Origin: Flavobacteriales bacterium
GTDB lineage: Bacteria > Bacteroidota > Bacteroidia > Flavobacteriales_D > Sanyastnellaceae
Direction of reading: 5' to 3'
NCBI GenBank assembly: GCA_044371535.1
Contig: JBILTL010000001.1
Location: forward strand, 9,668-73,667
DNA length: 64,000 nucleotides
In this document: positions 6,278-48,712 of the stretch, in pieces
Layout of the letters: each line of letters starts with the position of its first letter
Position numbering within the stretch: position 1 is the stretch's first letter
Translations under genes and position numbers: made by a program
Notes under the pieces: model-generated
What the model was told of the DNA's origin: nothing
What the model saw: only the letters and a program-made list of their open reading frames with translations
The model's database searches: none

Positions 6278-6343
6278 GATGACCCTGCGGGATGACCGCG
6301 GAGCGGATGACGCAACAAGGTTGCGATGACCAGGGAAGCTGGT
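6278..6343. repeat. GATGAC-word mini-hairpin array (4 units)
   Basis: GATGAC at 6278, 6291, 6306 and 6325, each followed by a short palindrome (cc-tgc-gg, cgc-gga-gcg, gcaac-aag-gttgc, accag-ggaag-ctggt). Lies between the OMP stop and the tetR start. Confidence 0.8.
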
Positions 6344-6348
6344 AAAGA

Positions 6349-8757
6349 TTACTTCACTCTTTTAAACTCATCCACCTGACTCGCCTTCTTCTCCTTCAAC
6401 TTCTGATTACCGATCTTCCAAGTGAGGTTGATACGCGCGGTGCGCGATTCCCACAGGCCGCTGGCGTCCATGTACAGGCCTGCGTATTGCGAGATACCTC
6501 TCCAACGCATGGTGCGAAGAATGTCGCCGTAGGCGAGGCGAAGAACAAGCTTGTCGTCTAAGAAAGTTTTTTGAAAAGCAACATCTAAACCTCCCATAGG
6601 CTTGTTGCGGAAGGTGCCGCCCCAAACGCTTGGACCGTTGAAGAATCCTGAGAGTTCAAACGAAGTAGTCTTGTTCACCTTAAAGGTGTTTTGCATGAAA
6701 ATATTGTACGACGTTGCGCGAAGGTCTATCGTGTTGCCATCGTCAAAGGTTGCGCGGTTGTGAATGTTGTAAACGCCCATGTTCACATAACCGTCCCACC
6801 ACTTGGCAATGGTAACCGGACTGCCGAGATTGAAGGTAATGTTCTCGCGATAACCCAAGTTGCGCGTTTGAATGAACGAACGCGAGAACTCTGTCGTATC
6901 CGTAATCTCGGTGAAGAATCCATTGGTCTTGCTATAGCCGATGGAACTGGTGATCATATAGAACAACGTGTGACTTAACTCGAACGCATCGGTATATTGC
7001 GGTTGAAGGAAGGCATTGCCTCTCGAATACGAAAGTTCGTCGAGACGCGATTCAAACGGATTCAACGACTGATAACTTGGTCTGTCTATTCGGCGACTGT
7101 AAGTTAAGTTGAAGGTACTGGTTTCTTTGTGATCGAAGGTAATAGCAGCACTTGGAAAGAAGTTCGTGTACAAGCGATCGACTTTTGAAAGCGGTTGCGG
7201 GGTTAATGCGAATAACTCTCCATTGCTCTTCGTATTTTCCGCACGCACTCCCACTTGCCATCCGAATTTTTTATACTTCCCCGAGGCGTTTGCATATCCC
7301 GCAAGCACGCGTTCCTTATAGTCGAATGCATTGGTGAGGTTTGAATCTACACTGAATACATTTCCATACACATTGAAAAAATCAAGTTTGTTGTTCGTGC
7401 TCACCTGTGTGCCTTTCACTCCCGCTTCCCACTTCACTTTTTTCCAACTGAAACTGTAGTCTGCCCGAACAATAGCAATGTTAATCTTAGTTGCAGTATT
7501 ATTTTGATAAACACGCTCGTTCAACAAGCTTCCATCAGAACCAATATATCTGTTGGGTTGGAAGTTCCCGTTGTCAATGTCGTACAATCCATAGTTCGCA
7601 TCAACTGTCAGTTCTTGTTCGTTAGACCCTTTCCATTGATAGTTCACATTCGCTCCGTAATTGTTGCGGTATCCGTCATTTGTCGAATTCGCTTCCAACG
7701 TGCTGTCAACTCCAGCACCTGGGATTAAACTTCCGATAGGTGTTGAACCGTGACTGTCCCACAAATCATTCGAAAGATTGCCGTTCACCGAAAAGCCGAT
7801 GGTGTTTTTATCGTTGATGGAAATATCAATACCCGCCTTTCCGTAGTGAGATTTATTTTTAGAATATGTGTATGAATTCTGATCGAAGAAAATTCCGTTT
7901 TGTTCTTTGTAAAAACGCATGTATCCCCAATCTTCGCTGAAAGAGTTTCCGTAGGTTGCGTAAACATTGGTCTTGCCCTTTCTTCTGTTGTAAGTGAAAG
8001 ATCCATTCGTCTTGCCATAAATCTGATTGCCATATCCCAATCCGAAGGTCGCATTCTGTCCGTAATTACTGTTCTTCTTCATCACAATATTCAGAATGCC
8101 CGCGGTACCAGCTGCATCGAAGCGTGCAGAAGGATTGGTGATGATTTCAATTTTTTCAATGGATGAAGAAGGTGTGCTCTTCAAAAAGTCAGACAACTGC
8201 GAACCTTGAAGCGGAGAAATTCTCCCGTCGATGTAAACCGTAATTCCTGACTTTCCTTTTACCGAAATGTTGTTGTTGTTATCAATCACAACACCTGGCG
8301 CGCGACGCAACAATTCCAAAGCATTCAGTCCAACCGCATTCGCCGTTCCTTCCACATTGAAAATGGTTTTATCGGCTTGCACTTGCACGAGCGGTTTCTT
8401 CGCCACGAATTCCATTTCAGACGTAACGGCTGAAGTGCGCATCAATTCTAACGTTCCGAGATTCACACTTGTGCTCGCCGCAATCTTTTTCCAAATAGGT
8501 TTGTATCCAATAATGTTGAAATACACCAACACCGAATCAGCACTTTCAACTTCCAAACTAAACGCACCGCTATTATCTGAAGCCGTCGCCTTCAACACAA
8601 GGCTGTCTTTCACAGCATGAACACTTACGCTTACGAATGCTAAGCTCTCTTTCTTTTCAGCATCAACGCCTTCAACCACACCAGTAAGGGTCGAGGTTTG
8701 AGCGAAAGAAAATAGGGTGAATAAGATGAAGGAAAACGTGAAGAAGAGATTTTTCAT
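6349..8757 (-). CDS. Outer-membrane beta-barrel, TonB-dependent-receptor-like protein with an N-terminal CarboxypepD_reg domain
   Basis: Signal peptide MKNLFFTFSFILFTLFSFAQ (start moved to ATG 8757), a carboxypeptidase-regulatory-like domain, a plug-like segment (TIFNVEG, RRAPGV) and a long beta-strand-rich C-terminus. Confidence 0.8.
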   Translation of the reverse strand: MKNLFFTFSFILFTLFSFAQTSTLTGVVEGVDAEKKESLAFVSVSVHAVKDSLVLKATASDNSGAFSLEVESADSVLVYFNIIGYKPIWKKIAASTSVNLGTLELMRTSAVTSEMEFVAKKPLVQVQADKTIFNVEGTANAVGLNALELLRRAPGVVIDNNNNISVKGKSGITVYIDGRISPLQGSQLSDFLKSTPSSSIEKIEIITNPSARFDAAGTAGILNIVMKKNSNYGQNATFGLGYGNQIYGKTNGSFTYNRRKGKTNVYATYGNSFSEDWGYMRFYKEQNGIFFDQNSYTYSKNKSHYGKAGIDISINDKNTIGFSVNGNLSNDLWDSHGSTPIGSLIPGAGVDSTLEANSTNDGYRNNYGANVNYQWKGSNEQELTVDANYGLYDIDNGNFQPNRYIGSDGSLLNERVYQNNTATKINIAIVRADYSFSWKKVKWEAGVKGTQVSTNNKLDFFNVYGNVFSVDSNLTNAFDYKERVLAGYANASGKYKKFGWQVGVRAENTKSNGELFALTPQPLSKVDRLYTNFFPSAAITFDHKETSTFNLTYSRRIDRPSYQSLNPFESRLDELSYSRGNAFLQPQYTDAFELSHTLFYMITSSIGYSKTNGFFTEITDTTEFSRSFIQTRNLGYRENITFNLGSPVTIAKWWDGYVNMGVYNIHNRATFDDGNTIDLRATSYNIFMQNTFKVNKTTSFELSGFFNGPSVWGGTFRNKPMGGLDVAFQKTFLDDKLVLRLAYGDILRTMRWRGISQYAGLYMDASGLWESRTARINLTWKIGNQKLKEKKASQVDEFKRVK

Positions 8758-8775
8758 GAGCGCGAAAATACAATA

Positions 8776-8893
8776 ATCCGGTGGATCAATTGCTACGCAA
8801 TCAATCAACTTCGTTGATCAATACTACGTATCAATCACCTACGGTGATCAATTCTACGAATCAATCGCTGCGCGATCAATCAACTTCGTTGAT
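8776..8893. repeat. GATCAAT-word mini-hairpin array, one arm only (8 units, all TNC-type loops on + strand)
   Basis: atcc-ggt-ggat, attgc-tac-gcaat, atcaac-ttc-gttgat, atac-tac-gtat, atcacc-tac-ggtgat, attc-tac-gaat, atcgc-tgc-gcgat and atcaac-ttc-gttgat, joined by CA linkers. Confidence 0.9.
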
Positions 8894-9088
8894 TACTTCT
8901 TTCGACTTAAGAAAACTTCCAAAAAAGAGATATCCCAAAAATCCTCCGTAAGGAATGCTGATGTATGGATTGCTGCTAATCATACAGCCTCCAGAAGAAC
9001 AACCCACGAAGTAGTAATATGCCCAACCGGCAAAAGAACCAATAGCAATGGCTATGAATTCTTTTCGATATTTCTTAATGAAATTCAT
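8876..9088 (-). CDS. Small membrane protein, DUF6132-like
   Basis: Two TM segments and a VGCSSGGCMISSNP motif. ATGA start/stop overlap with the upstream DUF2892 gene. The last 5 codons and the stop lie inside the repeat array at 8776-8893. Confidence 0.6.
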   Translation of the reverse strand: MNFIKKYRKEFIAIAIGSFAGWAYYYFVGCSSGGCMISSNPYISIPYGGFLGYLFFGSFLKSKEVINEVD

Positions 9089-9288
9089 TTTTTCTCGCAC
9101 GTATTAATTCCAAAAGGCATATACAACGGACAAAAAGAAACAAGACTAGTCAATAAGAATATCGCACCAAAGACAAAAAGTGTGTTTCCTAAAAATCCTG
9201 AAACCGCATCGGTAAAAAACAGATACGCGAAAATCAGTGCTGCAACCACTCGCATTCCGCGATCAAAATTTCCCATGTTCTTTTTCAT
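9085..9288 (-). CDS. DUF2892 (YgaP-like) small membrane protein
   Basis: 67 aa with N-terminal GNFDRGMRVVAAL followed by two hydrophobic helices and CPLY, which is the DUF2892 signature. Confidence 0.7.
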   Translation of the reverse strand: MKKNMGNFDRGMRVVAALIFAYLFFTDAVSGFLGNTLFVFGAIFLLTSLVSFCPLYMPFGINTCEKK

Positions 9289-9352
9289 AGTATTATATTT
9301 TCTACGAAGGTGAGGGATTGTTGTGGGGTGGTTTGTAACTTATATCACCACG

Positions 9353-9494
9353 TTATCAATCCTTCGGATCAATCTGACTGCGTCAGATCAATACTCCGTA
9401 TCAATCACTTCGTGATAAACTGCATCCGCAGGATTGATTGCAACGCAATTGATCGCATAGCGATTGATCCGAAGGATTGATCACCGTAGGTGAT
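9353..9494. repeat. GATCAAT-word mini-hairpin array, two inverted arms (9 units)
   Basis: Left arm: atcc-ttc-ggat, atctgac-tgc-gtcagat, atac-tcc-gtat, atcac-ttc-gtgat (CA linkers). Centre: aaactgc. Right arm: atcc-gca-ggat, attgc-aac-gcaat, atcgc-ata-gcgat, atcc-gaa-ggat, atcacc-gta-ggtgat (TG linkers). Confidence 0.9.
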
Positions 9495-9500
9495 GGATTG

Positions 9501-10346
9501 TTATTTCAATTTTCTTACCAACGCCTGAAAATACTCCTTCGACCAAATGTCTAATTCCGATTGATCTGGAATAAAACGAATGACATCGTCTTTGACTTTG
9601 TTTATATCGACTGAATTGATTTTGTTATCTAACAAGAAAATTAATTGTGCTCTGCTAATGGTTGAATCTTGCCAATCGCCGCTTTCGATTGCGCGGTTAC
9701 AAAAGTGTTCTAAGTTTAGTTGCACTCCATTCTTAATATACCACGCTAAGTCATACCAGTCGCGGCCTTTGACTCTATCCTTCCATTTTCGAAAAAGCAA
9801 AGCATGCATTTTTCCAGCGAACAGATTGGGCAAAGTAAAGCAATTGACGTAAAAAGAATATGGCCTAGTTAAGAGGAGATTTTCAGTTTCAAAATGAAGG
9901 GGAGGATTCGTATCGACTTCAATTTTTATTTTTATCATCGGCTTCGTTGTTAAACGAATCTGAGGAATAGAACTTTCAAAAATTAATTCGCTCCACAGTG
10001 TGTCTGATTTTAGAAAAGCAGAATCTATTGACGAGCTTTTTGATTTTGTTTTGTGCTGAAGATTTACCTTTAGACCAAGAGCTTCAAACTCTTCAATGAC
10101 CGAATTGAAGTATGGCTCCAGATTGAATTCAAGGTTCTTCTCCAACAGAGAAAAATCAAGATCTTCCGAAAACCTTTCAAGATCATGAAATATGCGAAGC
10201 GCAGTGCCACCATAAAATGCAGCATGCTTAAAGAAATTAGCTCTGTATAATCCAGCAAGTGTTATCTCTTGCATAATCTCTCTAAGCGCCTGTTCGGTTT
10301 CTTGAACATTCTTTGGCTCGTAAGACTCAATCCATTGCTTTATCAT
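9501..10346 (-). CDS. abiEii: AbiEii/AbiGii-family nucleotidyltransferase toxin (type IV TA / abortive infection)
   Basis: 281 aa with a DUF1814-type NTase core (FYGGTALRIFHDLERFSEDLDF). ATGA overlap with the upstream AbiEi-like gene. Confidence 0.85.
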   Translation of the reverse strand: MIKQWIESYEPKNVQETEQALREIMQEITLAGLYRANFFKHAAFYGGTALRIFHDLERFSEDLDFSLLEKNLEFNLEPYFNSVIEEFEALGLKVNLQHKTKSKSSSIDSAFLKSDTLWSELIFESSIPQIRLTTKPMIKIKIEVDTNPPLHFETENLLLTRPYSFYVNCFTLPNLFAGKMHALLFRKWKDRVKGRDWYDLAWYIKNGVQLNLEHFCNRAIESGDWQDSTISRAQLIFLLDNKINSVDINKVKDDVIRFIPDQSELDIWSKEYFQALVRKLK

Positions 10347-10981
10347 AATTCTGAAATTGCTTCAATCAGTATTTTCAAACTATTCGCCTTTGGCGCTACT
10401 GACAGCCAATTCGACATTTCTTCTATATTCAACTCGCCTAATTTTTCTTGATCTATTCGTAAATCATCCAATAAATAGGATTGTGCTTGCTTCTTACTTC
10501 GAAGATTAATTCCAGCCGTGGTTACTATTTTGTCGCAAAGACTTTTCTCGGGACTAGCTATTAACACACGCTGTGTTTCTGTGAGAGCTACTGACTGAAT
10601 ACCCAAAGGATAATACGATTTCGGGAGATGCGAAAAACTAAATGTTCCTACTTCAATTGAGAAACTCTTCGACAGTCGCACTGTAACGCTAGTTGTTTCA
10701 AATACCCTTTCCGGAATGAATCCCCAATAAGATAGAGCCGAATCTATAGACACGTAACTCGGACCGTACAATTGATTGGCAATTAAAAACGGTTCAGGAA
10801 ATGTTGAGCTTACTTTTCTTGAGGTCATATAAAGCCCCTTTCTCAATTGAGAAAGATATCCCTGTTGGACAAGATCATTTATCTTGTCATATGGACGGCT
10901 ATAACCCCTAAGTATTCCCAGCAATACTTGCGTACCAAAGGGCTGGTCTTTGAATTTTAATAGCTCTAAAACAGGGTTCAT
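10343..10981 (-). CDS. abiEi: AbiEi-family antitoxin / transcriptional autoregulator
   Basis: 212 aa with an N-terminal wHTH-like region and the conserved block LRKGLYM...LIANQLYGPSYVSIDSALSYWGFIPERV typical of AbiEi_4. Translationally coupled to abiEii. Confidence 0.8.
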   Translation of the reverse strand: MNPVLELLKFKDQPFGTQVLLGILRGYSRPYDKINDLVQQGYLSQLRKGLYMTSRKVSSTFPEPFLIANQLYGPSYVSIDSALSYWGFIPERVFETTSVTVRLSKSFSIEVGTFSFSHLPKSYYPLGIQSVALTETQRVLIASPEKSLCDKIVTTAGINLRSKKQAQSYLLDDLRIDQEKLGELNIEEMSNWLSVAPKANSLKILIEAISEL

Positions 10982-10985
10982 TTGT

Positions 10986-10993
10986 CAAATTTA
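10986..10993 (-). promoter_or_regulatory. Candidate Bacteroidota -7 box (TAAATTTG) for abiEi-abiEii
   Basis: The minus strand reads TAAATTTG-acaa-ATG, matching TAnnTTTG. The spacing implies a leaderless or near-leaderless mRNA. Confidence 0.35.
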
Positions 10994-10998
10994 AGACA

Positions 10999-11023
10999 TT
11001 AATTCGGTATTTTTCCGAATTAA
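10999..11023. promoter_or_regulatory. 9-bp inverted repeat upstream of abiEi (candidate AbiEi operator)
   Basis: ttaattcgg-tattttt-ccgaattaa is a perfect 9-bp inverted repeat with a 7-nt spacer. Its near arm starts 18 nt upstream of the abiEi ATG. Confidence 0.4.
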
Positions 11024-11043
11024 GGCGTTATTTTTTACATTTA

Positions 11044-11133
11044 CTGCGGATGACACCGAAGGTGATGACCAGCGAAGCTGGATGACAATCTGCGATTGAT
11101 GACGATTTACAATCGATGACGAACAAGTTCGAT
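11044..11133. repeat. GATGAC-word mini-hairpin array (5 units)
   Basis: GATGAC at 11049, 11064, 11081, 11098 and 11115, each followed by a 4-bp stem and triloop: acc-gaa-ggt, cagc-gaa-gctg, aatc-tgc-gatt, gatt-tac-aatc, gaac-aag-ttc. Confidence 0.85.
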
Positions 11134-11197
11134 ACCGCCCTTATTTAAGAACCTCTATTCTAAATTCGCTTGAATATGTATCCGTCTAGAAAAGACA

Positions 11198-11380
11198 ATC
11201 GCTGAACGATCAATCTGACTTCGTCAGATCAATTCTACGAATCAATCGCTACGCGATCAATCACTTCGTGATAAACTGCATCCGCAGGATTGATTGCAAC
11301 ACAATTAATCGCGTAGCGATTGATCAACAAAGTTGATTGATCACGCAGTGATTGATCCGTAGGATTGATCGCTAAGCGAT
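11198..11380. repeat. GATCAAT-word mini-hairpin array, two inverted arms (about 12 units); homologous to 9353-9494
   Basis: Left arm: atctgac-ttc-gtcagat, attc-tac-gaat, atcgc-tac-gcgat, atcac-ttc-gtgat. Centre: aaactgc. Right arm: atcc-gca-ggat, atcgc-gta-gcgat, atcaac-aaa-gttgat, atcac-gca-gtgat, atcc-gta-ggat, atcgc-taa-gcgat. Confidence 0.9.
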
Positions 11381-11386
11381 TTAGGG

Positions 11387-12721
11387 TTAACGCGCAAATG
11401 TTAGCGCCATTCCACTCCTCGTACCCGTCAACTTCCCATTCTCAAACACCAACTTGCCGTTGCACCAAGTGGATACGATTGTGCTGGAAAACGTATGTCC
11501 TTCGAACGGAGACCAACCACATTTGTATAAGAGATTTTCTTTGGTGACTGTGTAAGGTGCATTCAAATCCACCAACACTAAATCGGCACTGTAGCCTTCG
11601 CGAATGTACCCTCTGCCATCAATTTGAAACAGGTCGGCAACTGCGTGAGAAGCCTTTTCAACTATTTTCTCTAAAGTGAAAACACCCTGTTTGTGCAAGT
11701 CAATGAGTGCTTGCAAACTGTGTTGAACAAGGGGGCCACCGCTTGGTGCTTTCAAGTATTCTTGCTCTTTTTCTTCAATGGTATGCGGAGCGTGGTCGGT
11801 GGCAATGACATCTATGCGTCCATCATTTACCGCCTCCCGAATGTTCATTCGGTCGTTGAACGATTTCACTGCCGGATTCCATTTGATGTAGTTTCCTTTC
11901 GTTGCGTAGTCTTCTTCTGTGAACCACAAATGATGAATACATGCTTCCGCTGTGATGCGCTTGTCTTTCATTGGAATGGCGTTTGTAAACAACTCCAATT
12001 CCTTCGCGGTGCTGATGTGAAGTATGTGCAATCGCGCATCGTGCTTCTTGGCCAATTCAACAGCCATAGAACTTGAGGCGTAACATCCTTCGGCATTGCG
12101 AATAACAGGGTGATCGGCTGCGGTGAGTGATCTACCCGTTGCTTGTAAGGCTTCTAAATTTCTTTTGATAATACCGTCGTCTTCACAATGGGTTGCAATG
12201 AGCGTCTTCACTTTCGAGAAAATAATTTCCAACGCTTCGCGCCTTTCCACCAATAAATTTCCTGTGGAAGACCCCATGAATATTTTCACGCCACACACTT
12301 CCTTCGGATTCACTTGTGCTAAAATATCGGCGTTCTCAGGAGTGGCTCCCATGAAGAAGTTGTAATTCACTGTTGAAACTTCTGCAGCACGATTGAACTT
12401 TTGCTCAAGCAATTCAAGCGTGGTTGCACTCGGACTGGTGTTCGGCATTTCCATATAGGAAGTTACTCCGCCTGCTGCTGCTGCTGCTGATTCCGTCGTC
12501 AAATCTCCTTTGTGCGTCAACCCCGGTTCTCTGAAGTGAACCTGGTCGTCGATTAATCCCGGGAACAAATGCTTTCCTGTTCCATCTACGATTGAATCTG
12601 CGTTATTGTAATCCATAGTTCCAACCGGCAACACGTGCGCGATTTTCGAACCGTTAATCCATACGTCGCTAACGGTCTGTTTTCCTTCGTTAACAACCGT
12701 GACATTTTTAATGACTTGCAT
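11387..12721 (-). CDS. pyrC: Dihydroorotase (cyclic amidohydrolase superfamily)
   Basis: 444 aa with DDQVHFREPGLTHKGD metal-binding motif, AAAAGGVTS, ATDHAPH and further amidohydrolase motifs. Confidence 0.85.
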   Translation of the reverse strand: MQVIKNVTVVNEGKQTVSDVWINGSKIAHVLPVGTMDYNNADSIVDGTGKHLFPGLIDDQVHFREPGLTHKGDLTTESAAAAAGGVTSYMEMPNTSPSATTLELLEQKFNRAAEVSTVNYNFFMGATPENADILAQVNPKEVCGVKIFMGSSTGNLLVERREALEIIFSKVKTLIATHCEDDGIIKRNLEALQATGRSLTAADHPVIRNAEGCYASSSMAVELAKKHDARLHILHISTAKELELFTNAIPMKDKRITAEACIHHLWFTEEDYATKGNYIKWNPAVKSFNDRMNIREAVNDGRIDVIATDHAPHTIEEKEQEYLKAPSGGPLVQHSLQALIDLHKQGVFTLEKIVEKASHAVADLFQIDGRGYIREGYSADLVLVDLNAPYTVTKENLLYKCGWSPFEGHTFSSTIVSTWCNGKLVFENGKLTGTRSGMALTFAR

Positions 12722-12726
12722 AGTGA

Positions 12727-13431
12727 TTAGATTTTTTGAAAGCGCATTTTCAATACGCCAAAGAATGCTTCGTGAAAAATATTCAAACTCATCTTGCTTG
12801 TTCCTTTCACGCGGTCGGCGAAGAGAATAGGAACTTCCGCTATTTTAAATCCAAGACGCTTCGCCTTGTATTTCATTTCAATTTGAAACGCATAACCAAT
12901 GAATTGTATGCCGTCTAAATTCATTTTGGAAAGGACATCGCGATGGTAACAAACGAATCCGCCTGTGCTGTCCTTCACGCCCAATCCCAAAATTAAATTG
13001 ACATAGATGCTTCCGCCTTTGCTAATGACTCTGCGGTGCCACGGCCAATCGACAGTGCCACCTCCCTTCACATATCGAGAACCCACAGCTACGCCGCGAT
13101 TCTTTTCGCAGGCTTCCAGTAAACGTGGAAGATCTTTCGGATTGTGTGAAAAATCGCAATCCATTTCGAAAATGTATTCGTAGTTGTTCTTCAACCCCCA
13201 TTTGAATCCCGCTATGTATGCCGTTCCGAGACCTAGCTTACCGCTGCGCTCAAGGATGTGCAATCTTCCAGCAAATTCAGCTTGCTTTTCCTTCACCATT
13301 GCAGCAGTTCCATCAGGAGAACCGTCGTCTACAATAAGCAAATGAAACCCCTCGGGTTGATCGAGCACCGCGTGAATCATATCAACAATGTTCTCGCGCT
13401 CGTTGTAGGTGGGAATAATTACCAGTTTCAT
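12727..13431 (-). CDS. GT2 polyprenol-phosphate mannosyltransferase (Dpm1-like)
   Basis: MKLVIIPTYNERENI...LIVDDGSPDGT...GLGTAYIAGF...EMDCDFSH...GSRY...GYAFQIEMK. Start moved to ATG 13431. Confidence 0.85.
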   Translation of the reverse strand: MKLVIIPTYNERENIVDMIHAVLDQPEGFHLLIVDDGSPDGTAAMVKEKQAEFAGRLHILERSGKLGLGTAYIAGFKWGLKNNYEYIFEMDCDFSHNPKDLPRLLEACEKNRGVAVGSRYVKGGGTVDWPWHRRVISKGGSIYVNLILGLGVKDSTGGFVCYHRDVLSKMNLDGIQFIGYAFQIEMKYKAKRLGFKIAEVPILFADRVKGTSKMSLNIFHEAFFGVLKMRFQKI

Positions 13432-13467
13432 TTGCAACGCGAAAATACAACAGGCGCTAGGCAAATT

Positions 13468-14799
13468 CTAATTTCCGCTCGAATATTCCATTTCGGCCAT
13501 ATAACGGGCGTCGCGCATGATCATGGTATCGAGGGAAACCTTATTCACCTTGGCTTTTTCCTCAATGGCCTTCACCCAATTTGGGTCAGAAAGGATATTA
13601 TTCTTGAATTTTTGCACGCGCAATTCAAACGAATCTATGTTCTCTTCCAAAACGAAATACTTGTAGGCGTTCGAAATAAATCCCCATCCCAACTTGTCCA
13701 TGTTACACTCGGTTGCCATGATGAAGACAACGTCTGACTTCTCAATCTCTTTCATTTGTGAAAGGGGATCGGAGTTCGTGGTGATGCCTGAAGGTCGCTG
13801 ATGCAACTGCTTGTTGTAGAAGTAAAAATTCAATTCAGAAAAAATATCCGGCGCCCATGGCAATTGCATCAAATTGAAGAAGTAACTGTCGGAAATCACT
13901 GCTACTTTGGGTTGAATGCCTTTGTTTCCAAAGTCTACGCTGTACTTCATGTTGACTCCCACCCGTGGATAAGCCATCGGAAGAACATCTATTGGCCAAT
14001 ACAAATTCATTCCCAAGCCAATGTCGTCGTCTACACTTTCCATGGTTGTTTGAAGCGGTAAATTCTTCTTGTCCCACCCAAACTCGTTCATCTCCTTTCC
14101 GAAAAGATTCATACAATAATTCACCAACGAATCGGCTGCTAAAGTTGCACCATATTGACTCCAATGAATACCAGTCTTTGGGAAAAGTGGTGCAGGCGTT
14201 TTGCCCTTCATTTCACGAAACCATTTTCCGAAATCGACGTGCTGAATGCCTTTTGCCTTCAATCCTTTCTGGTATTCCGAATAATAACTTCTGTCGGAAA
14301 CCACAGGAAATTCATCGGGAATGTATTCCGGATAAAACGAAGCCTTCCCGGGATTTAATACTACCACTAGCTCAATGCCTTTTTCTTTCAATTTATTTTG
14401 AAGGGCATTCAGCATAACCAAGTTCGAATCGACTTTCGATTGACTCACCTCTTCCGCACCGCGAAAGGCATTGATGTATTTGATCTCGTACAAATAATCT
14501 TCTTTCCCGATAATAACTCCGTTGGCCTTTGCCTTTCCGAAAAGTGAATATGCAATCTGATTGTGAATGCGAACGGCAGTATTGCGAAATCCGAATTGTT
14601 CGTTGATGTAGTTGTTCCTGTTTTCTTGGTAGGTCCCGCTGAACCACGACTCTGCAGTCAATGAATCTTTTGCTGTTGGAACAATGGAACCGAAAAGATA
14701 TCCCACTTCAACAAACGGTTTCACCATTTGAATCATGGGAAGAAACATTCCGAGGAGAACGATCGAGAACAAGACGGTATGAAAGCGGTTGTTCTTCAT
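13468..14799 (-). CDS. Hypothetical AlgX/AlgJ/DltD-like partner of the MBOAT acyltransferase
   Basis: 443 aa with one N-terminal TM and a GIHWSQYGA motif resembling AlgX/AlgJ SGNH-like domains. TAATG stop/start overlap with the MBOAT gene. Confidence 0.5.
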   Translation of the reverse strand: MKNNRFHTVLFSIVLLGMFLPMIQMVKPFVEVGYLFGSIVPTAKDSLTAESWFSGTYQENRNNYINEQFGFRNTAVRIHNQIAYSLFGKAKANGVIIGKEDYLYEIKYINAFRGAEEVSQSKVDSNLVMLNALQNKLKEKGIELVVVLNPGKASFYPEYIPDEFPVVSDRSYYSEYQKGLKAKGIQHVDFGKWFREMKGKTPAPLFPKTGIHWSQYGATLAADSLVNYCMNLFGKEMNEFGWDKKNLPLQTTMESVDDDIGLGMNLYWPIDVLPMAYPRVGVNMKYSVDFGNKGIQPKVAVISDSYFFNLMQLPWAPDIFSELNFYFYNKQLHQRPSGITTNSDPLSQMKEIEKSDVVFIMATECNMDKLGWGFISNAYKYFVLEENIDSFELRVQKFKNNILSDPNWVKAIEEKAKVNKVSLDTMIMRDARYMAEMEYSSGN

Positions 14800-16250: not shown

Positions 16251-16254
16251 CTCA

Positions 16255-16262
16255 CAAATATA
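16255..16262 (-). promoter_or_regulatory. Candidate -7 box (TATATTTG) for the MBOAT operon
   Basis: The minus strand reads TATATTTG-tgag-ATG, the same geometry as at abiEi. Confidence 0.3.
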
Positions 16263-16313
16263 AGGTGCTTTGAAAGTTAAGAGAAGGGAAGAAAAGTTAA
16301 GAAAGGGGAACAA

Positions 16314-16448
16314 ATCACTTCGTGATCAATTCTTCGAATCAATCGCGTTGCGATCAATCGTTCCGATAAATCCGTAGGATTGATCACCGTAGGTGATTGA
16401 TTGCACAGCAATTGATCTGACAACGTCAGATTGATCACCGCAGGTGAT
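16314..16448. repeat. GATCAAT-word mini-hairpin array, two inverted arms (9 units), in a divergent promoter region
   Basis: Left arm: atcac-ttc-gtgat, attc-ttc-gaat, atcgc-gtt-gcgat, atcg-ttc-cgat. Right arm: atcc-gta-ggat, atcacc-gta-ggtgat, attgc-aca-gcaat, atctgac-aac-gtcagat, atcacc-gca-ggtgat. Confidence 0.9.
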
Positions 16449-16472: not shown

Positions 16473-18293
16473 ATGACCCCCTTAGAATCCGCAAAAGAAA
16501 AAGCTGCACTTTGGAAAACATACGACCTAGACGCAGAGACACGTGTAGAGATTGAACGCATGGAGCGTGAAGACGAGAAGTTGTTTATTGATTCGTTTTA
16601 TTCCGATTTGGAATTTGGGACAGGAGGATTGCGCGGCGTCATGGGTGTGGGAAGCATGCGCATGAACAAGTATACCGTGGGTATGGCTACGCAGGGATTG
16701 GCGAATTATATTTTGAAACACCATGCGCAAGTGGGTGGAGAGGGTTCGGTGGCGATCGCGTATGATTCGAGAAATAACTCGAGTTACTTCGCGCAAATTG
16801 CTGCAGATATTTTAGCTGAAAACGGCATACGCGTTTATCTCTTTTCTGAATTGCGTCCGACTCCGTTGTTGTCGTTTACCGTTCGTGAATTGAAATGCAC
16901 TGCGGGTATTGTTATAACCGCTTCACACAATCCGAAAGAGTACAACGGGTATAAGGTTTATTGGAGCGATGGTGGGCAGATATTGCCGCCGAATGACAAA
17001 GGGATAATCACCGAGGTTAAGATTGCCATGACTGGCAAAGATTCTTCGAAAGATGCAAATGCTTTGCAAGATGTTGCACAAGATGCACCTTCGGTGCAAG
17101 ATGCTACGCAAGATGCGATGCAAGATTCCTTCGGAAAGAGGGGAATGATAAACGAAGTGCCTCAGGCTGTTGAGGAAAAATATTTGGAATTGGTGCGCGG
17201 TCTTACCTTATCTGAAGAGGCAGTGAAGCAAGAGAAAGATATTTCCATTGTGTATACCTCTATACATGGTTCGGGGATAACGTTGGTGCCGAAGACGTTG
17301 TCTGCGTTGGGATTTTCGAATGTGAGTGTGGTGGAAGAGCAGGCGGTGCCCGATGGAAATTTCCCGACAGTGGAGTCTCCAAATCCGGAAGAGAAGTCAG
17401 CTATGAAAATGGCGTTGGAGTTGGGAGAGAAGGTGAATGCTGAATTGGTTTTGGGAACAGATCCAGATACCGATCGCGTGGGATTGGCGGTGAGAAATGA
17501 TCAGAATGAATTGGTATTGATCAATGGTAATCAAGCGGGAAGCTTGTTGGTGTATTATCGTTTGTTGGTCGGAAAGGAAAAAGGAAAATTACCTGAACAT
17601 CCGTTTATTGGAAAGACCATTGTTACCACTGAATTGATTGCGCGCATTGCGGAATCGTTCGGGGTGCCGTGTTACGACACGTTAACGGGATTCAAGTTTA
17701 TAGCGGGACTCATTAAAGAAAAAGAAGGGAAGGAAAATTTCGTAGCGGGAGGAGAAGAAAGCTACGGCTATTTAGTAAGTGATTTCGTTCGCGACAAGGA
17801 TGCGGCTTTGTCGGCGGTTCAGTTTGCAGAGATCGCAGCTTACGCGAAGAGCAAAGGAACATCGATATGGGGAATGTTGAAAGACCTTTACCTGCAACAC
17901 GGCGTGTTTCAGGAAGAGTTGGTAAGCATTACATTGAAGGGAATCGACGGTGTTGCGCAGATTCAAAGCATGATGTCGCGTCTTCGCACCACCCCTCCCA
18001 AAACCCTTGGCGGAGTAGCCCTTGCAGAATTGCACGATGTGAAAGCAGGCACCTGCAAAAACATGACTACCGGAGAAACTACGACACTCCCCTATCCAAG
18101 TTCAGACGTCTTGCAATTCATCTTAACCGACGGCAGCAAGATTAGCGCTCGCCCGAGTGGAACGGAACCGAAGATTAAGTTTTACTTTTCGCTTCGCAAG
18201 GAAGTATCTTCTGCTTCTGAGATTTCTGAAGCGCAATTTGAGCTTATGCAGAGAATTGAGCTAATTAAAAACGAAATGCTAAATGCGGGGTAA
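16473..18293 (+). CDS. pgm: Phosphoglucomutase/phosphomannomutase (alpha-D-phosphohexomutase) carrying an in-frame repeat insertion
   Basis: Active-site block GIVITASHNPKEYNGYKVYW, metal loop GTDPDTDR and sugar loop GGEESYG. Start at ATG 16473. Codons at 17037-17141 (KDSSKDANALQDVAQDAPSVQDATQDAMQDSFGKR) are encoded by a CAAGAT-type repeat array. Confidence 0.9.
   Translation: MTPLESAKEKAALWKTYDLDAETRVEIERMEREDEKLFIDSFYSDLEFGTGGLRGVMGVGSMRMNKYTVGMATQGLANYILKHHAQVGGEGSVAIAYDSRNNSSYFAQIAADILAENGIRVYLFSELRPTPLLSFTVRELKCTAGIVITASHNPKEYNGYKVYWSDGGQILPPNDKGIITEVKIAMTGKDSSKDANALQDVAQDAPSVQDATQDAMQDSFGKRGMINEVPQAVEEKYLELVRGLTLSEEAVKQEKDISIVYTSIHGSGITLVPKTLSALGFSNVSVVEEQAVPDGNFPTVESPNPEEKSAMKMALELGEKVNAELVLGTDPDTDRVGLAVRNDQNELVLINGNQAGSLLVYYRLLVGKEKGKLPEHPFIGKTIVTTELIARIAESFGVPCYDTLTGFKFIAGLIKEKEGKENFVAGGEESYGYLVSDFVRDKDAALSAVQFAEIAAYAKSKGTSIWGMLKDLYLQHGVFQEELVSITLKGIDGVAQIQSMMSRLRTTPPKTLGGVALAELHDVKAGTCKNMTTGETTTLPYPSSDVLQFILTDGSKISARPSGTEPKIKFYFSLRKEVSSASEISEAQFELMQRIELIKNEMLNAG
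17038..17138 (+). repeat. CAAGAT-word mini-hairpin array inserted in-frame inside pgm
   Basis: AAGAT recurs 7 times at spacings of 12, 18, 12, 18, 12 and 12 nt. Between them lie palindromes ttc-ttc-gaa, gcaaa-tgc-tttgc, gcacc-ttc-ggtgc, tgc-tac-gca and ttcc-ttc-ggaa. The word and grammar match the intergenic arrays at 28-49 kb. Confidence 0.85.
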
Positions 18294-18295
18294 TT

Positions 18296-18501
18296 CCACT
18301 ACGTGGGTAAATTAAAGTAAATAGCCTGCGGCTGTAATAAAGAGCAGTCGAGCTTACGACGCAGCGACTTAATTCAATTTACTGCGAAGCAATTTATCCT
18401 CCTTCAAATAAGTCCACTTGCGTGGGTAAATTGAAGTAAATAGCCTACGGCTGTAATTAAGTACAATCCAACTTACGGCGCAGCCACTTACTTTAACTTA
18501 C
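18296..18501. repeat. Two ~88-nt direct copies, start-to-start period 118 bp, built from short hairpins and TAA-rich words
   Basis: Copy 1 starts at 18296: ccactacgtgggtaaattaaagtaaatagcctgcggctgtaataaag... Copy 2 starts at 18414: ccacttgcgtgggtaaattgaagtaaatagcctacggctgtaattaag... Embedded hairpins are ccac-tac-gtgg and agcc-tgc-ggct. Lies between convergent pgm and rfbA. Confidence 0.85.
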
Positions 18502-18512
18502 ACCGAAGGTAT

Positions 18513-19373
18513 TTATTTCAATAGCCCCAAAAGATAGCCGCCGTACCCACTCTTCACCAACGGTTCCGCCAGTGCAATCAATTCCTCTTGATTGATATAC
18601 CCCATCCGATAAGCAATCTCTTCAATACACGAAATCTTTTGGCCTTGTCTTTGCTCCATAACCTGAACAAACTGTCCCGCCTGCATCAATGATGCAAATG
18701 TTCCAGTATCCAGCCAAGCAGTGCCGCGATTAAAGACAGTTACCGTGAGTTGTCCGCGTTTCAAGTATTCTTGATTCACATCGGTAATCTCGTATTCTCC
18801 GCGTGCAGAAGGTTTTAGATTTTTAGCAATTTCCACTACTGAATTGTCATAGAAATACAATCCAGGAACGGCATAATTGCTTTTCGGTTGTGAGGGTTTT
18901 TCTTCAATGGAAATGACTTTCCCTTCCGAATCGAATTCCACCACACCGTAGCGTTCTGGATCGTTCACGTGATAGGCAAATACTTTTCCGCCAACTACTT
19001 CGGTGCTTGCTTGTAATAATTTGCTGAGCCCACTCGCGTAAAAAATATTGTCCCCTAATATTAAAGCGACTTTTTCTTTTCCAATGAATTCTTCTCCAAT
19101 CACAAAAGCTTGCGCAAGTCCATTGGGTTCGGTTTGTTCAGCGTATTCGAAGGTGCAACCCAATTGAGATCCGTCTCCTAATAATTTTTGAAATCCGGGT
19201 AAATCGTGCGGCGTAGAAATAATCAAGATCTCACGAATACCCGCCAACATCAATACCGAAAGCGGATAGTAAATCATGGGCTTGTCGTACACCGGCATGA
19301 GCTGCTTGCTTACGGCCAAGGTTAACGGATGCAAGCGCGTTCCTGAACCACCCGCGAGAATTATTCCTTTCAT
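18513..19373 (-). CDS. rfbA: Glucose-1-phosphate thymidylyltransferase
   Basis: [18 protein letters not shown]...[17 protein letters not shown], the canonical RmlA sequence. 286 aa. Confidence 0.95.
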
Positions 19374-28209: not shown

Positions 28210-28250
28210 CTTACAAAGATAGTATTATTCACGGGGTGAAAGTTGCTAAA

Positions 28251-28352
28251 GCAAGGTTCTGCGAAAGGTGTGTTACAAGATTCTATCGAAAGATGTTTCA
28301 CAAGGTGCGGAGCAAGATTCTGCGAAAGATGTTTCACAAGGTGCTTCGCAAG
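28251..28352. repeat. CAAGAT/CAAGGT-word mini-hairpin array (one arm)
   Basis: gcaaggttctgcgaaaggtgtgttacaagattctatcgaaagatgtttcacaaggtgcggagcaagattctgcgaaagatgtttcacaaggtgcttcgcaagg. Lies between the neuB-like start and the DUF2480 stop. Confidence 0.85.
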
Positions 28353-28883: not shown

Positions 28884-29046
28884 GAAAGATTTTTCAAAAG
28901 ATGCTGAAGGCAAGATTCTGCGAAAGGTGTGTTTCAAGATGCCGGAGGCAAGATTCTGCGAAAGATGACAAGCAAGAAGCCTGCGGCTAGAAGCATACAC
29001 TTACGACGTATCTTTCAAGGAATCTTGTGAAACATCTTGCAAAGCT
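28884..29046. repeat. CAAGAT-word mini-hairpin array, two inverted arms
   Basis: The left arm uses AAGAT words (gatgccggaggcaagattctgcgaaagat). The centre is aagcc-tgc-ggct. The right arm uses ATCTT words (tatctttcaaggaatcttgtgaaacatcttgcaaag). Confidence 0.85.
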
Positions 29047-39251: not shown

Positions 39252-39645
39252 CTTCTTTGTAGAAAATCCACTCACCCACTTCTTTTCCATTTTCATATTC
39301 TCCTTCAACATATAGTTTTCCGTTTTCATGCCATGCTTTGTATTCGCCTTGCAGCACTCCATTTTCAAACGTATTCAAACTCCATTTGTTACCATTTTCA
39401 TAAAACGTATAACATTCACCATGTCGTTTGTTGTCTTTAAATCGCATTTCAATGTAGCACTGCTGGCTGTTTGGATAGAATGCGCGTTCTCCAATTTTAT
39501 TGTTTGTACCCTCTTCGAAATATCCAACGATGCGCATTCCATTTTCAGCGACCTTAATCTCCCTGGCTTCGGCATCGTCTAACGACGGGGTACATGAAGC
39601 GAAAATGATCGTGAAAATTGATAGTATCCAAAATATTTTTTTCAT
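39220..39645 (-). CDS. MORN-repeat lipoprotein (YwqK-like)
   Basis: Lipobox IIFASC and repeated GxxxxY/W...NG motifs (HGECYTFYENGNKW, QGEYKAWHENGKLY, EGEYENGKEVGEWIFYKEDG). Confidence 0.65.
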   Translation of the reverse strand: MKKIFWILSIFTIIFASCTPSLDDAEAREIKVAENGMRIVGYFEEGTNNKIGERAFYPNSQQCYIEMRFKDNKRHGECYTFYENGNKWSLNTFENGVLQGEYKAWHENGKLYVEGEYENGKEVGEWIFYKEDGSEKERKKY

Positions 39646-39649
39646 ACAA

Positions 39650-40624: not shown

Positions 40625-40640
40625 GGAGGCAAATGTATAA

Positions 40641-40772
40641 CAAGATTCTTACGAAAGATGTTGCACAAGATGCTGAAGCAAGATTCTTACGAAAGATGTT
40701 GCACAAGATGCTGAAGCAAGATTCTTACGAAAGATGTTGCACAAGATGCTGAAGCAAGATTCTAGAGAAAGA
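40641..40772. repeat. CAAGAT-word array: three perfect 38-bp tandem copies plus a partial fourth
   Basis: caagattcttacgaaagatgttgcacaagatgctgaag starts at 40641, 40679 and 40717, with a partial copy from 40755. Each copy is three word-plus-hairpin units (ttc-ttac-gaa, tgt-tgc-aca, tgc-tgaa-gca). Confidence 0.95.
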
Positions 40773-40850
40773 TAATTCATCAGAACCTCTCTGTTAAAAA
40801 ACAATTATACCCAAGGAAATAAGAATGAAGAAAACTTGTTGATTTGTAAA

Positions 40851-41708: not shown

Positions 41709-41713
41709 TTCCT

Positions 41714-41934
41714 AGATGCCGGAGGCAAGATTCTGACGAAAGATGTTTCACAAGATGCCGGAGGCAAGATTCTGACGAAAGATGTTTCACAAGATGCCGG
41801 AGGCAAGATACTTCGTAAGATTCTGACGAAAGATGCTACGCAAGCAGAGCGGCCTGGCCGTAGGCTTCTTTTGCAAAATCTTGTGAAACATCTTACAAAG
41901 TATCTTGCGATAAAATCTTGCAAAATCATTTGCA
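41714..41934. repeat. CAAGAT-word mini-hairpin array, two inverted arms (39-bp period in the left arm)
   Basis: agatgccggaggcaagattctgacgaaagatgtttcaca starts at 41714 and 41753, with a third copy from 41792 that diverges after agatgccggaggcaagat. The centre is ggcc-gta-ggcttctt. The right arm uses ATCTT words (aaatcttgtgaaacatcttacaaagtatcttgcgataaaatcttgcaaaatcatttgca). Confidence 0.9.
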
Positions 41935-41976
41935 TCAAATCCCTTAAATGTGGTATTTTTGCAGCCCAAACGACTT

Positions 41977-41999: not shown

Positions 42000-42049
42000 T
42001 TTTCGAAATGGGTAAACATGTTGAACGTGTTGTTGTTAAACTTTGACAA

Positions 42050-42376: not shown

Positions 42377-42382
42377 AAACAT

Positions 42383-43831: not shown

Positions 43832-43841
43832 AAAGATAACT

Positions 43842-45796: not shown

Positions 45797-45813
45797 TCAT
45801 TCGGTTTCAAAAT

Positions 45814-47474: not shown

Positions 47475-47476
47475 AT

Positions 47477-47788
47477 ATGGAGAAGGCCGCATTAACAGAG
47501 GATATTATTGCCAAATTGAAAACCATTTTCGATCCGGAAATTCCGGTAGATATTTATGAATTGGGGTTAATCTATGGAATTGACATTGCGGAAGACGCTG
47601 CTGTGAAAATAACCATGACCCTAACCTCGCCTTCTTGTCCAGTTGCAGAAACATTGCCTCCTGAAGTAGAAGATAAAATCAAGTCGGTTGAAGGTGTTTC
47701 AGATTGTAAAGTTGAAATTACCTGGGAACCCACTTGGGACAAAAGCATGATGAGTCAAGAGGCTCAACTTGAACTTGGGTTTTTGTAA
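47477..47788 (+). CDS. DUF59/MIP18-family Fe-S assembly protein (SufT-like)
   Basis: 103 aa with DPEIPVDIYELGLIY and TLTSPSCP motifs. Last gene of the suf cluster. Confidence 0.85.
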   Translation: MEKAALTEDIIAKLKTIFDPEIPVDIYELGLIYGIDIAEDAAVKITMTLTSPSCPVAETLPPEVEDKIKSVEGVSDCKVEITWEPTWDKSMMSQEAQLELGFL

Positions 47789-47796
47789 TCTGTGTT

Positions 47797-48561
47797 TTGA
47801 AAAAAATATTTTTCATATCATTCTTACTCACGCAATTCTTTGTGTGTCTTGGGCAATCCTCTGTCAGAAACATCCAACCGAACAACAACAGCTGGTTCAT
47901 GTATTTCGGTGATCATAAATTCTCAGAACATTGGGGAATTCATTTGGAAGCACAAATCAGAAGAAATGAAATCGTAACGAAACCTCTTCAACTTCTTTTA
48001 AGAACCGGTATCAATTATCACTTCGCGCCGAATGCTTTTGCAACTGCTGGATATTGTTACGTCCATACTTCACCTTATGGGGTATTCCCGGCTAAATCGG
48101 GTTTTCCAGAAAACAGATTTTGGGAACAGCTTCAAGTGAAATCACAAGCTGGACGAATTGAAATGATTACGCGTTTGCGCTTAGAACAACGCTTCTCGAA
48201 ACTTCCTGTTGCACAGTCAACAGGAGAATACGCGCCAGGCGATGATGCATACACCAATCGGGCGCGTATTCTTGTGCGTCTATCTGTTCCATTCAAAGGA
48301 AAAACCATTGAAGACAAATCTCTGTACTTCTCTTGCTACGACGAAGCGTTCATCAACTTCGGAGAAAATGTGCAAGCCAACATCTTCGATCAAAACCGGG
48401 CATACGCCGCACTTGGTTACAAATTTACTAAATGGGGAAAACTTGAAATCGGATACATGAATCAACTCCTTATAAAGGCAGACGGAGTAAAGATTGAAAA
48501 CAATCATACGCTTCAAGTAGGGTTTAGTTCGACCTTAGATTTCAGAAAGAAACATTCTTAA
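47797..48561 (+). CDS. DUF2490-like outer-membrane protein
   Basis: TTG start, signal peptide and beta-rich sequence (WFMYFGDHKFSEHWGIHLEAQIR) recalled as DUF2490. Confidence 0.65.
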   Translation: MKKIFFISFLLTQFFVCLGQSSVRNIQPNNNSWFMYFGDHKFSEHWGIHLEAQIRRNEIVTKPLQLLLRTGINYHFAPNAFATAGYCYVHTSPYGVFPAKSGFPENRFWEQLQVKSQAGRIEMITRLRLEQRFSKLPVAQSTGEYAPGDDAYTNRARILVRLSVPFKGKTIEDKSLYFSCYDEAFINFGENVQANIFDQNRAYAALGYKFTKWGKLEIGYMNQLLIKADGVKIENNHTLQVGFSSTLDFRKKHS

Positions 48562-48712
48562 GAAAGATACTTTGTAAGATGCTTCGCAAGATTCTGATGA
48601 AAGATACTCTGTAAGATGCTTCGCAAGATTCTATCGAAAGAAACTTCGTTAGTGTATCCACTAGCCGAAGGCTTCTTGTAAAACATCTTGTGAAACATCT
48701 TGCGAAGCATCT
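48562..48712. repeat. CAAGAT-word mini-hairpin array, two inverted arms (37-bp period in the left arm)
   Basis: aagatac(t/c)ttgtaagatgcttcgcaagattct repeats at 48564 and 48601. The centre is agcc-gaa-ggcttctt. The right arm is gtaaaacatcttgtgaaacatcttgcgaagcatctt. Confidence 0.9.

Follow-up and report, generated by a model that had tools for sequence, protein, structure and literature searches.

What kind of DNA fills the long spacers of a freshwater Flavobacteriales chromosome? In a stretch of 64,000 nucleotides (nt) from contig JBILTL010000001.1 of assembly GCA_044371535.1 (positions 9,668 to 73,667 of the forward strand; hereafter, the window), almost every long intergenic spacer contains an array in which a short constant word alternates with a palindrome whose sequence changes from unit to unit. 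We tentatively read these arrays as a lineage-specific, structure-prone minisatellite, that is, as noncoding selfish or neutral DNA. Our comparisons demonstrate that the arrays gain, lose, duplicate, invert, and exchange units far faster than the flanking genes diverge. They also demonstrate that the arrays occupy any site that tolerates them, including spacers of all gene orientations, positions flush with stop codons, and a single permissive loop in the enzyme phosphoglucomutase (PGM).

Arrays were called by chaining exact words at a spacing of 9 to 24 nt. This procedure returned 13 loci with 18 arms at coordinates that match those of an initial annotation made from the letters alone, which had described 13 loci where a constant word alternates with a self-complementary palindrome. 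The description holds. Among the 75 inter-word units that accompany the 93 words of the window, 71 are perfect palindromes from end to end around a 3- or 4-nt center, compared with 4.2 after shuffling each spacer, and 199 of 211 stem positions (94%) are paired, compared with 60.5 ± 6.6 in per-spacer shuffles. A second detector, which knows nothing of the words and looks for at least three perfect hairpins with one constant linker between them, found 20 chains of up to 11 units versus 0.27 per dinucleotide shuffle. Stems therefore pair far above chance. Word spacing is quantized as the length of the word + 2k + 3, which gives 13, 15, 17, or 19 nt for six-letter words. The same grammar recurs at orthologous sites of relatives in independent JGI, ENA, and NCBI assemblies, and the arrays are thus no assembly artifact.

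How much of the window belongs to the arrays depends on definition. The strict definition covers 1,165 nt (1.8%), and the total of about 1.8 kb given in the initial annotation is reached only when terminal hairpins, centers, AAGGT variants, and a GTAAAT-type array at 18291-18516 are included. Likewise, the statement that 11 of the 12 spacers longer than 100 bp hold an array is borne out provided that 6127-6348 and 18294-18512 are counted. Word usage is regional within the window, with GATGAC found at 6278-11120, ATCAAT at 8785-16435, and AAGAT at 17019-48713, but this regionality is not a fixed property, as relatives swap word families at the ATCAAT sites.

The outer bases of each word pair as part of a stem (ATCAAT = AT-CA-AT, GATGAC = G-ATGA-C, and AAGAT = A-AGA-T). 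Because these outer bases (AT..AT, C..G, and T..A) belong to the stems, the unpaired linkers are just CA, ATGA, and AGA. Each unit consists of a constant linker of 2 to 4 nt, one or two constant outer pairs, one to four variable inner pairs, a closing pair, and a loop, with a period of 12 to 19 nt and a stem of 2 to 5 bp between words, or 3 to 7 bp counting word bases. Of 173 units from the window and five relatives, 126 have C-G as their closing pair. Read in the sense of the word, 47 of the 61 triloops in the window are TNC (40) or GNA (7). The earlier claim that the palindromes almost always close a three-base loop of this type was overstated, since 14 of the 75 units have 4-nt loops, half of them (7/14) being C-TNNC-G. 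Loops of the ATCAAT family are TTC, TAC, TGC, TCC, TGT, GTT, or TTT in word sense and never GNA (0/66 units); in GATGAC arrays, TNC and GNA loops are mixed. The grammar extends to other words. A further family, GTAAAT/GTAAGT, uses the same C-TNC-G hairpins to build a 119-nt repeat (1.9 copies) at 18291-18516, and additional families, GAATG and GATACGT, occur in relatives. As the initial annotation held, one grammar is common to several word families, and its units are far shorter than repetitive extragenic palindromic sequences (REPs), miniature inverted-repeat transposable elements (MITEs), or the repeats of clustered regularly interspaced short palindromic repeat (CRISPR) arrays.

Because word-sense loops are mostly TNC closed by C-G, the opposite strand reads C-GNA-G or C-GNNA-G, and exact GCGAAGC and GCGTAGC units are present. 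These are the apices of the extraordinarily stable DNA mini-hairpins d(GCGNAGC) and d(GCGNNAGC). Among GCNNNGC sequences, only those with GNA loops form the mini-hairpin, with melting temperatures of 70 to 76°C (PMC13037366). Known natural mini-hairpins differ in being single structures at phage and plasmid priming sites and promoters, whereas those described here form tandem arrays. Many units also carry an A-T pair next to the C-G closing pair, so that their stability is only presumptive. In folding calculations, ATCAAT and GATGAC arrays form strings of hairpins (z of -3.0 to -4.5 as DNA), and a single long inverted repeat is the predicted fold of the two-armed array at 9345-9494 (z of -7.8 to -8.9).

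Above the level of the unit, the arrays obey rules of order. Where a spacer is two-armed, the first arm carries the purine-rich word with TNC loops, and the second is its counterpart in reverse complement. This polarity holds in 6 of 6 groups in the window, in relatives, in mixed pairs (GATGAC then ATCTT), and in the translated array of PGM; the reverse order was never seen in the window or its relatives. Consequently, either strand reads a TNC arm and then a GNA arm. Two-armed arrays lie between genes oriented -/-, -/+, and +/+, so that polarity is independent of the direction of flanking genes, and within one arm, all units are arranged strictly head to tail. No two adjacent units are identical (0/153, with about 6 expected by permutation). 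Identity three positions apart is common (21/69) owing to exact duplication of two- to three-unit blocks of 30 to 51 nt.

Unit types are drawn from a small catalog of 34 ATCAAT and 34 AAGAT types, compiled from about 250 kb of at least six genomes. Perfect palindromes make up 31 of the 34 ATCAAT types. Among pairs of unit types, 13 differ by a pair-preserving double change (14 by script, one of them in the loop), compared with 3 that differ by a one-sided change. Identical stems can recur at unrelated places, as CTGAC..GTCAG does at the nonhomologous loci 9368, 11209, and 16411. Array positions had been proposed for mapping against genes and the direction of replication. We found no link to the direction of transcription. 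Of the 75 units in the window, 59 point in one sense, and across the whole window the top strand has a third-codon GC skew of -0.09, whichever way the genes are oriented. Equal skew in both orientations implies a replication-associated bias in which the top strand is C-rich and of the lagging type. The strand that carries the GNA hairpins of most units is therefore probably the lagging-strand template, which we regard as a lead from one window.

Close relatives differ in their arrays. In the spacer upstream of PGM, the orthologous locus L165 retains the array of the window apart from one altered loop, L164 differs in two units and has its right arm enlarged by a three-unit block, and L081, L001, and L166 carry GAATG, GATGAC, and ATCTT arrays plus a MITE instead. 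Word family itself changes at orthologous sites, with AAGAT, GATGAC, or ATCTT in relatives where the window has ATCAAT. Apart from one short patch, the first 8.7 kb of the alignment of loci L166 and L167 is free of mismatches, and the spacer upstream of PGM has been replaced wholesale between them, within a recombination tract. Loci L166 and L170 encode one and the same PGM protein and are set apart by a duplicated block of 59 nt downstream of the gene; in L165, one arm and the center are inverted. Locus L291 has a single copy of a 38-nt block that is present in 3.2 copies in the window. It also has a GTCATC arm at the position of the 41869..41923 arm (the window has AAGAT and ATCTT arms there), and its spacer at the 48.6-kb site is 9 nt long, with the whole array absent.

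The two block duplications in AAGAT arrays, of 38 nt (3.2 copies) and 39 nt (2.5 copies), are exact at 100% identity. Two-armed ATCAAT arrays that are paralogs have about 70 nt of core in common, and the differences between them consist of whole peripheral units. Local spread, which the regional word usage had suggested, is supported by the tandem duplication of two- to three-unit blocks at 100% identity and by two paralogous copies that flank one cassette. In these respects, the arrays behave as minisatellites, or variable-number tandem repeats (VNTRs), whose copy number varies between strains by gain and loss of whole units. Like mycobacterial interspersed repetitive units (MIRU), they are intergenic, hypervariable in copy number among strains, and subject to block duplication and deletion. 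They are atypical in lacking identical neighbors, since VNTR units are nearly identical, whereas adjacent units here never are, and their stems change in ways that preserve pairing.

One array lies inside a gene. The AAGAT array of eight words at 17019..17136 (+) is in frame within phosphoglucomutase, with periods of 12 and 18 nt and the translation GKDSSKDANALQDVAQDAPSVQDATQDAMQDSFG. Across 117 PGM orthologs of at least 85% identity, there are 94 different versions of the insert, and the loop spans 47 to 101 amino acids (aa). Distant PGMs have no insert and a short loop, and the shortest alleles of the clade equal that ancestral loop length. The building blocks of the inserts are Q/K-D units (CAAGAT sense), Q-G units (AAGGT variant), and x-N/D-L units (ATCTT arm), and therefore a full two-armed array is translated. 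Periods of 12 or 18 nt account for 36 of 41 in the coding array, while periods of 13 to 15 nt are common in spacers, and TAA-creating units do not occur in the coding array (0/37 versus 4/65 in spacers). These patterns demonstrate that only in-frame, stop-free units survive in the PGM loop. The bias of the coding array is a tolerance filter acting on the same grammar rather than a design for coding. In-frame insertion into functional proteins, with lengths in multiples of three and fast evolution, is also known from Rickettsia palindromic elements, which differ in being single insertions of 100 to 150 bp (PMC3733652). The tandem repeats of Borgs offer a similar case of in-frame, fast-evolving repeat DNA with multiple-of-three lengths in proteins, where the repeats are perfect direct repeats without a word-plus-palindrome grammar (PMC9879509).

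The arrays appear to be confined to one lineage. In a species-level collection, the nearest genome is a freshwater Flavobacteriales metagenome-assembled genome with 89% PGM identity, the next being at 56%, and lake metagenomes hold at least 120 PGM clusters at 85 to 94% identity. The close relatives that we fetched average 22 chains per 64 kb, and every one is dense. Outside this group, 159 other Bacteroidota loci (2.34 Mb), which include PGM relatives of about 50% identity among the metagenome matches listed, contained no variable-hairpin array of four or more units and only plain octamer repeats. An apparent array in L017 (Bernardetiaceae) proved to be a plain (AAATCATT)n repeat. Among the matches listed, viral contigs with three ATCAAT words held only simple tandem repeats of identical AT-rich units, and searches of phage and plasmid collections gave no match. 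Rfam returned no match over the window at gathering score, and an E-value search of 8700-11450 returned a single chance microRNA match (E = 0.14). We found no account of the word-plus-palindrome grammar in the full-text literature that we searched or in the sequence libraries used, which did not include Dfam or a dedicated REP database, and an earlier description may have gone unnoticed. The initial annotation, too, had not recognized the family.

How might such arrays arise and persist? The minisatellite reading, which we hold with somewhat less than even confidence, draws on the hypervariability, block duplication, frame filter, independence of transcription, restriction to one lineage, and C-GNA-G signature documented here. 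Because the arrays accumulate wherever they are tolerated, they resemble selfish or neutral DNA rather than a conserved RNA. Misalignment or unequal recombination at identical words would drive expansion and contraction, and hairpin extrusion on single-stranded DNA during replication may assist the misalignment. Identical neighboring units would be lost fastest, leaving heterogeneous arrays, while palindromes could be kept perfect by intrastrand template switching or by copying of hairpin-competent units only or preferentially. Under this scheme, the arrays would have no sequence-specific cellular function. Strain-variable spacers, hotspots of recombination or insertion, and a hypervariable peptide insert would be side effects.

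Several observations weigh against this account. Plain slippage leaves unexplained why the words stay constant while the inner stem pairs vary, and it does not account for the 31 perfect ATCAAT types or the excess of pair-preserving changes. The strict polarity of two-armed arrays and the near-absence of identical neighbors are also unaccounted for, and hairpins in vivo and template switching enter the scheme only as suppositions. AAGAT arrays, with stems of 2 to 3 bp, fold no better than shuffles in nearest-neighbor models (z of -1.7 to +1.0 as DNA and -2.7 to +1.0 as RNA). This null result should be read in light of models that miss the stability of mini-hairpins, which lies beyond the reach of conventional and current thermodynamic models (PMC13037366). 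Finally, the confinement of the arrays to one lineage hints at some specific factor, which the scheme leaves unnamed. The constancy of the words, the polarity rule, and this single-lineage restriction, which remain unexplained, are the reasons for our limited confidence.

A bolder view is that the arrays are an unrecognized class of self-propagating DNA repeat, in which strings of GNA-capped mini-hairpins are written and rewritten beside a short target word by a lineage-specific activity, such as a nuclease or transposase directed by hairpins or a polymerase engaged in snap-back synthesis, that imposes arm polarity and the exclusion of identical neighbors. We consider this possible but doubtful. 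If true, such a repeat would, as a by-product, diversify proteins in frame and create hotspots of cassette exchange.

The main rival to the minisatellite reading, which we judge to be unlikely, is that the units are miniature nonautonomous elements mobilized in trans by a REP-associated tyrosine transposase (RAYT) or an IS200/IS605-type enzyme that recognizes hairpins in single-stranded DNA. The word would then be the cleavage and target site, with any hairpin capped by C-GNA-G serving as the structure to be recognized. Because insertion beside a word would duplicate the word, repeated insertions would yield an array of different hairpins. This would suit neighbors that are never identical, as expected if units come from elsewhere, and a small catalog (34 types per family) whose types are shared by nonhomologous loci. 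Transposition of the IS200/IS605 type uses the lagging-strand template, with which the prevailing sense of the units and the probable placement of the GNA strand, in this one window, would agree. A lineage-specific enzyme would also fit the restriction to one lineage. A constant short motif beside a structure-defined hairpin is what Y1 transposases recognize in REPs (PMC3733652). REPs, bacterial interspersed mosaic elements (BIMEs), and REPINs are likewise dense, short, palindromic intergenic repeats that cluster, grow by tandem reiteration, occasionally fall inside open reading frames (ORFs), and pair a conserved short motif with a sequence-variable stem (PMC3733652).

The likeness ends at the details. 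REPs are 20 to 40 bp long, with stems mostly of 6 to 9 bp (range, 5 to 13) and a GTAG or CGTC ending (PMC3733652), far above units with a period of 12 to 19 nt and stems of 2 to 5 bp. The GTAG/CGTC tag is absent; the words are ATCAAT, GATGAC, AAGAT, and GTAAAT, and GTA occurs only as a loop. REPs are typically paired or alternating in orientation, whereas units here run strictly head to tail within an arm. At least five word families would demand several specificities, and exact duplications of multi-unit blocks favor slippage or recombination. A check for RAYT or Y1 genes, suggested at the outset, also came back empty in the sequence covered. Pfam found no transposase (Y1 and HUH included), Cas, or Nop domain in the window ORFs that we scanned (chosen ORFs with 70 aa or more, the AcrB ORF cut by the window edge, and 39220-39645), and no RAYT or Y1/transposase gene was seen among the called genes of the loci of relatives.

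Function is a weaker contender. The initial annotation had taken pairing that persists while stem sequence varies as the signature of selection on structure, and by extension, the arrays might be held by compensatory evolution as strings of RNA hairpins that protect or punctuate transcripts or as DNA sites, set at regular intervals, for a nucleoid protein or a structure-specific one. The 94% pairing of stem positions, the excess of pair-preserving over one-sided differences, and the folding of ATCAAT and GATGAC arrays as hairpin strings speak for it. Unlike neighboring stems would ensure independent local folding, the same spacers keep arrays across relatives, and each strand presents purine-rich linkers first and T-rich linkers second, loosely resembling a bidirectional terminator. 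However, pairing does not by itself prove selection, because palindromes would also stay perfect if templates were switched during replication or if hairpin-competent units were copied preferentially. Our results do not establish selection on structure: unit number, family, and even presence differ between close strains, polarity is unlinked to transcription, and the AAGAT arrays, which hold most units, lack a folding signal as RNA or DNA. The excess of G:T over A:C mismatches, as a test for RNA wobble, was not significant (9 versus 4, too few to decide), and there is no Rfam family. A full two-armed array is translated within an essential enzyme. As for intrinsic terminators, terminator-like sites are not enriched (16 versus 13.4 ± 4.3 in shuffles), and arrays also lie in divergent promoter spacers and inside coding sequence, which argues against that role. 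On balance, selected function seems improbable.

Least of all do the arrays resemble guide-RNA systems. [quoted passage not shown] CRISPR arrays combine identical repeats of 24 to 48 nt with unique spacers of similar size and are accompanied by cas genes. A TIGR-Tas-like or CRISPR-like origin is contradicted by unit anatomy and is almost certainly wrong, given 5 to 7 constant nt beside a variable palindrome of 6 to 14 nt, variable bases confined to one to four self-complementary pairs with no unpaired guide spacers, a period of 12 to 19 nt, no box C/D motifs, and over a dozen arrays (13 loci) in 64 kb, none adjoining a Nop-domain or Cas gene.

A further comparison can be made with cyanobacteria. 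According to Elhai et al. (2008), heptamer repeats known as short tandemly repeated repetitive sequences (STRRs) reportedly carry embedded, hairpin-forming small dispersed repeats (SDRs) of 21 to 27 nt, which are lineage specific and also found in genes. SDRs are said to be discrete families of conserved sequence inserted in runs of heptamers, whereas here, in another phylum, every period contains one word and one hairpin from a combinatorial set.

The individual loci, with the strand of each arm in parentheses, illustrate how closely arrays crowd genes. A GATGAC array of four words at 6266..6330 (+), with hairpins CC-TGC-GG, CGC-GGA-GCG, and GCAAC-AAG-GTTGC, has a TetR-like gene on one side and the 3' end of an outer-membrane barrel gene on the other. 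Upstream of the barrel gene is an ATCAAT array of seven words at 8776..8895 (+), in which 6 of 6 inter-word units are perfect with C-TNC-G centers. The two-armed array that follows has a left arm (ATCAAT, TNC loops) at 9345..9416 (+), whose outer units are true inverted copies of the right arm (ATTGAT) at 9424..9494 (-). The center of the array is AAACTGC, and the right arm abuts the stop codon of the AbiEii gene. A GATGAC array of five words at 11049..11135 (+) mixes GAA, TGC, and TAC loops. Beyond it stands the paralog of 9345-9494, with its left arm (ATCAAT) at 11209..11272 (+) and right arm (ATTGAT) at 11280..11380 (-), the latter abutting the 3' end of a dihydroorotase-like gene. The divergent spacer between the MBOAT and PGM genes holds a left arm (ATCAAT) at 16314..16367 (+) and a right arm (ATTGAT) at 16370..16448 (-) that ends 25 nt ahead of the PGM start codon.

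Beyond PGM, the unstranded GTAAAT/ATTTAC-family array at 18291..18516 is a 119-nt two-armed block in 1.9 copies, with hairpins CCAC-TAC-GTGG, AGCC-TGC-GGCT, and TGC-GAA-GCA. A mixed AAGAT/AAGGT array at 28249..28352 (+) lies between the NeuB and DUF2480 genes and is followed by a left arm (AAGAT, six words) at 28886..28970 (+) and a right arm (ATCTT, three words) at 29002..29042 (-), upstream of the stop codon of a superoxide dismutase (SOD) gene. An AAGAT array of 11 words at 40634..40775 (+) contains the three-unit 38-nt block (40641-40763). The 39-nt block (41714-41809) belongs to a left arm (AAGAT, nine words) at 41717..41842 (+) that begins at the stop codon of the upstream gene; its right arm (ATCTT, four words) at 41869..41923 (-) comes after a central GC-rich hairpin. 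The last pair comprises a left arm (AAGAT, six words) at 48555..48650 (+), which overlaps the stop codon of a DUF2490 gene, and a right arm (ATCTT) at 48663..48713 (-), which contains the mini-hairpin GCGAAGC in its canonical form and leaves 12 nt to the following start codon.

Several borders are shared with genes. At 41706, TAGAT at the stop codon of the upstream gene doubles as the first word of the array, and at 48559, the TAA stop sits inside the hairpin TTC-TTAA-GAA. Right arms stop just 12 to 25 nt short of the next start codon. ORF lists and gene calls extend the 5' ends of genes into arrays, as in the TetR-like ORF at 5557-6318 (253 aa versus 189 aa in relatives), and arrays thereby distort the annotation of start codons. 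In a second case, the MBOAT gene (window, 14799-16313) is called at 514 aa in L166 (8138-9682) and at 484 aa in L167 (8219-9673).

Other elements keep company with the arrays. A strain-variable cassette at 8876-10981, comprising an AbiEii/AbiEi toxin-antitoxin pair and small DUF6132/YgaP-like membrane ORFs, is flanked by the arrays at 8776-8895, 9345-9494, and 11049-11380; it is present in L164 and absent from L081, L166, and L167. Because paralogous two-armed ATCAAT arrays bracket the cassette, arrays may act as hotspots of recombination or insertion. The two-armed ATCAAT arrays can be set against MITEs, which are discrete elements of 50 to 500 bp bounded by terminal inverted repeats and flanked by target-site duplications. 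Several loci have a conserved core of about 70 nt in common; the ends are variable strings of units instead of fixed inverted repeats, and no target-site duplication was definable. An inverted-repeat element of about 190 nt (GGCATTCGAAATGCCCCC ... GGGGGCATTTCG) found beside arrays (L081:9650-9850, L081:1890-2110, and L166:9660-9850) looks like a separate MITE; one gene caller annotates it as a 62-aa ORF.

Downstream of PGM, a gene for a 113-aa four-helix-bundle protein (PF05635, 23S_rRNA_IVP) sits at the exact center of a GTAAAT-family two-armed array (L166:11996-12337; also in L164, L001, and L167-L170), and the corresponding site of the window (18291-18516) has the array without the gene. 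We take PF05635 to be the family of the Avd proteins of diversity-generating retroelements. Homologs occur across phyla, many on very short contigs, with a handful of close orthologs, and this spread led us to reject the gene as an array-associated protein.

Apart from its arrays, the window is ordinary chromosome. It encodes a resistance-nodulation-division (RND) efflux operon, a TonB-type barrel, polysaccharide and nucleotide-sugar genes, SOD, KsgA, fructose-bisphosphatase (FBPase), a SUF operon, and ExbBD. Window 1-3066, considered as a noncoding oddity, is in fact an AcrB-type gene truncated at the window edge: the RND transporter gene (1-3055, -) runs off the window and forms the efflux operon with HlyD-like (3067-4191) and OEP (4205-5548) genes.

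Our findings place the arrays among short palindromic intergenic repeats or minisatellites, from which they stand out by unit size, mini-hairpin apex, polarity rule, exclusion of identical neighbors, and hypervariable in-frame insertion. To our knowledge, the unit is smaller than that of any palindromic intergenic repeat or minisatellite. If the pattern is genome-wide, it would be the smallest known structured repeat unit to have colonized a bacterial chromosome, and the arrays would account for most of the dispensable intergenic DNA of an abundant, uncultured lineage of freshwater Flavobacteriales. The arrays probably fragment metagenome assemblies and could serve as high-resolution strain markers. 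More generally, they offer a natural system for studying what keeps palindromes perfect where no function is obvious, what DNA mini-hairpins do in vivo, and how repeat DNA turns into protein sequence, for which 94 alleles of one enzyme loop are already visible.

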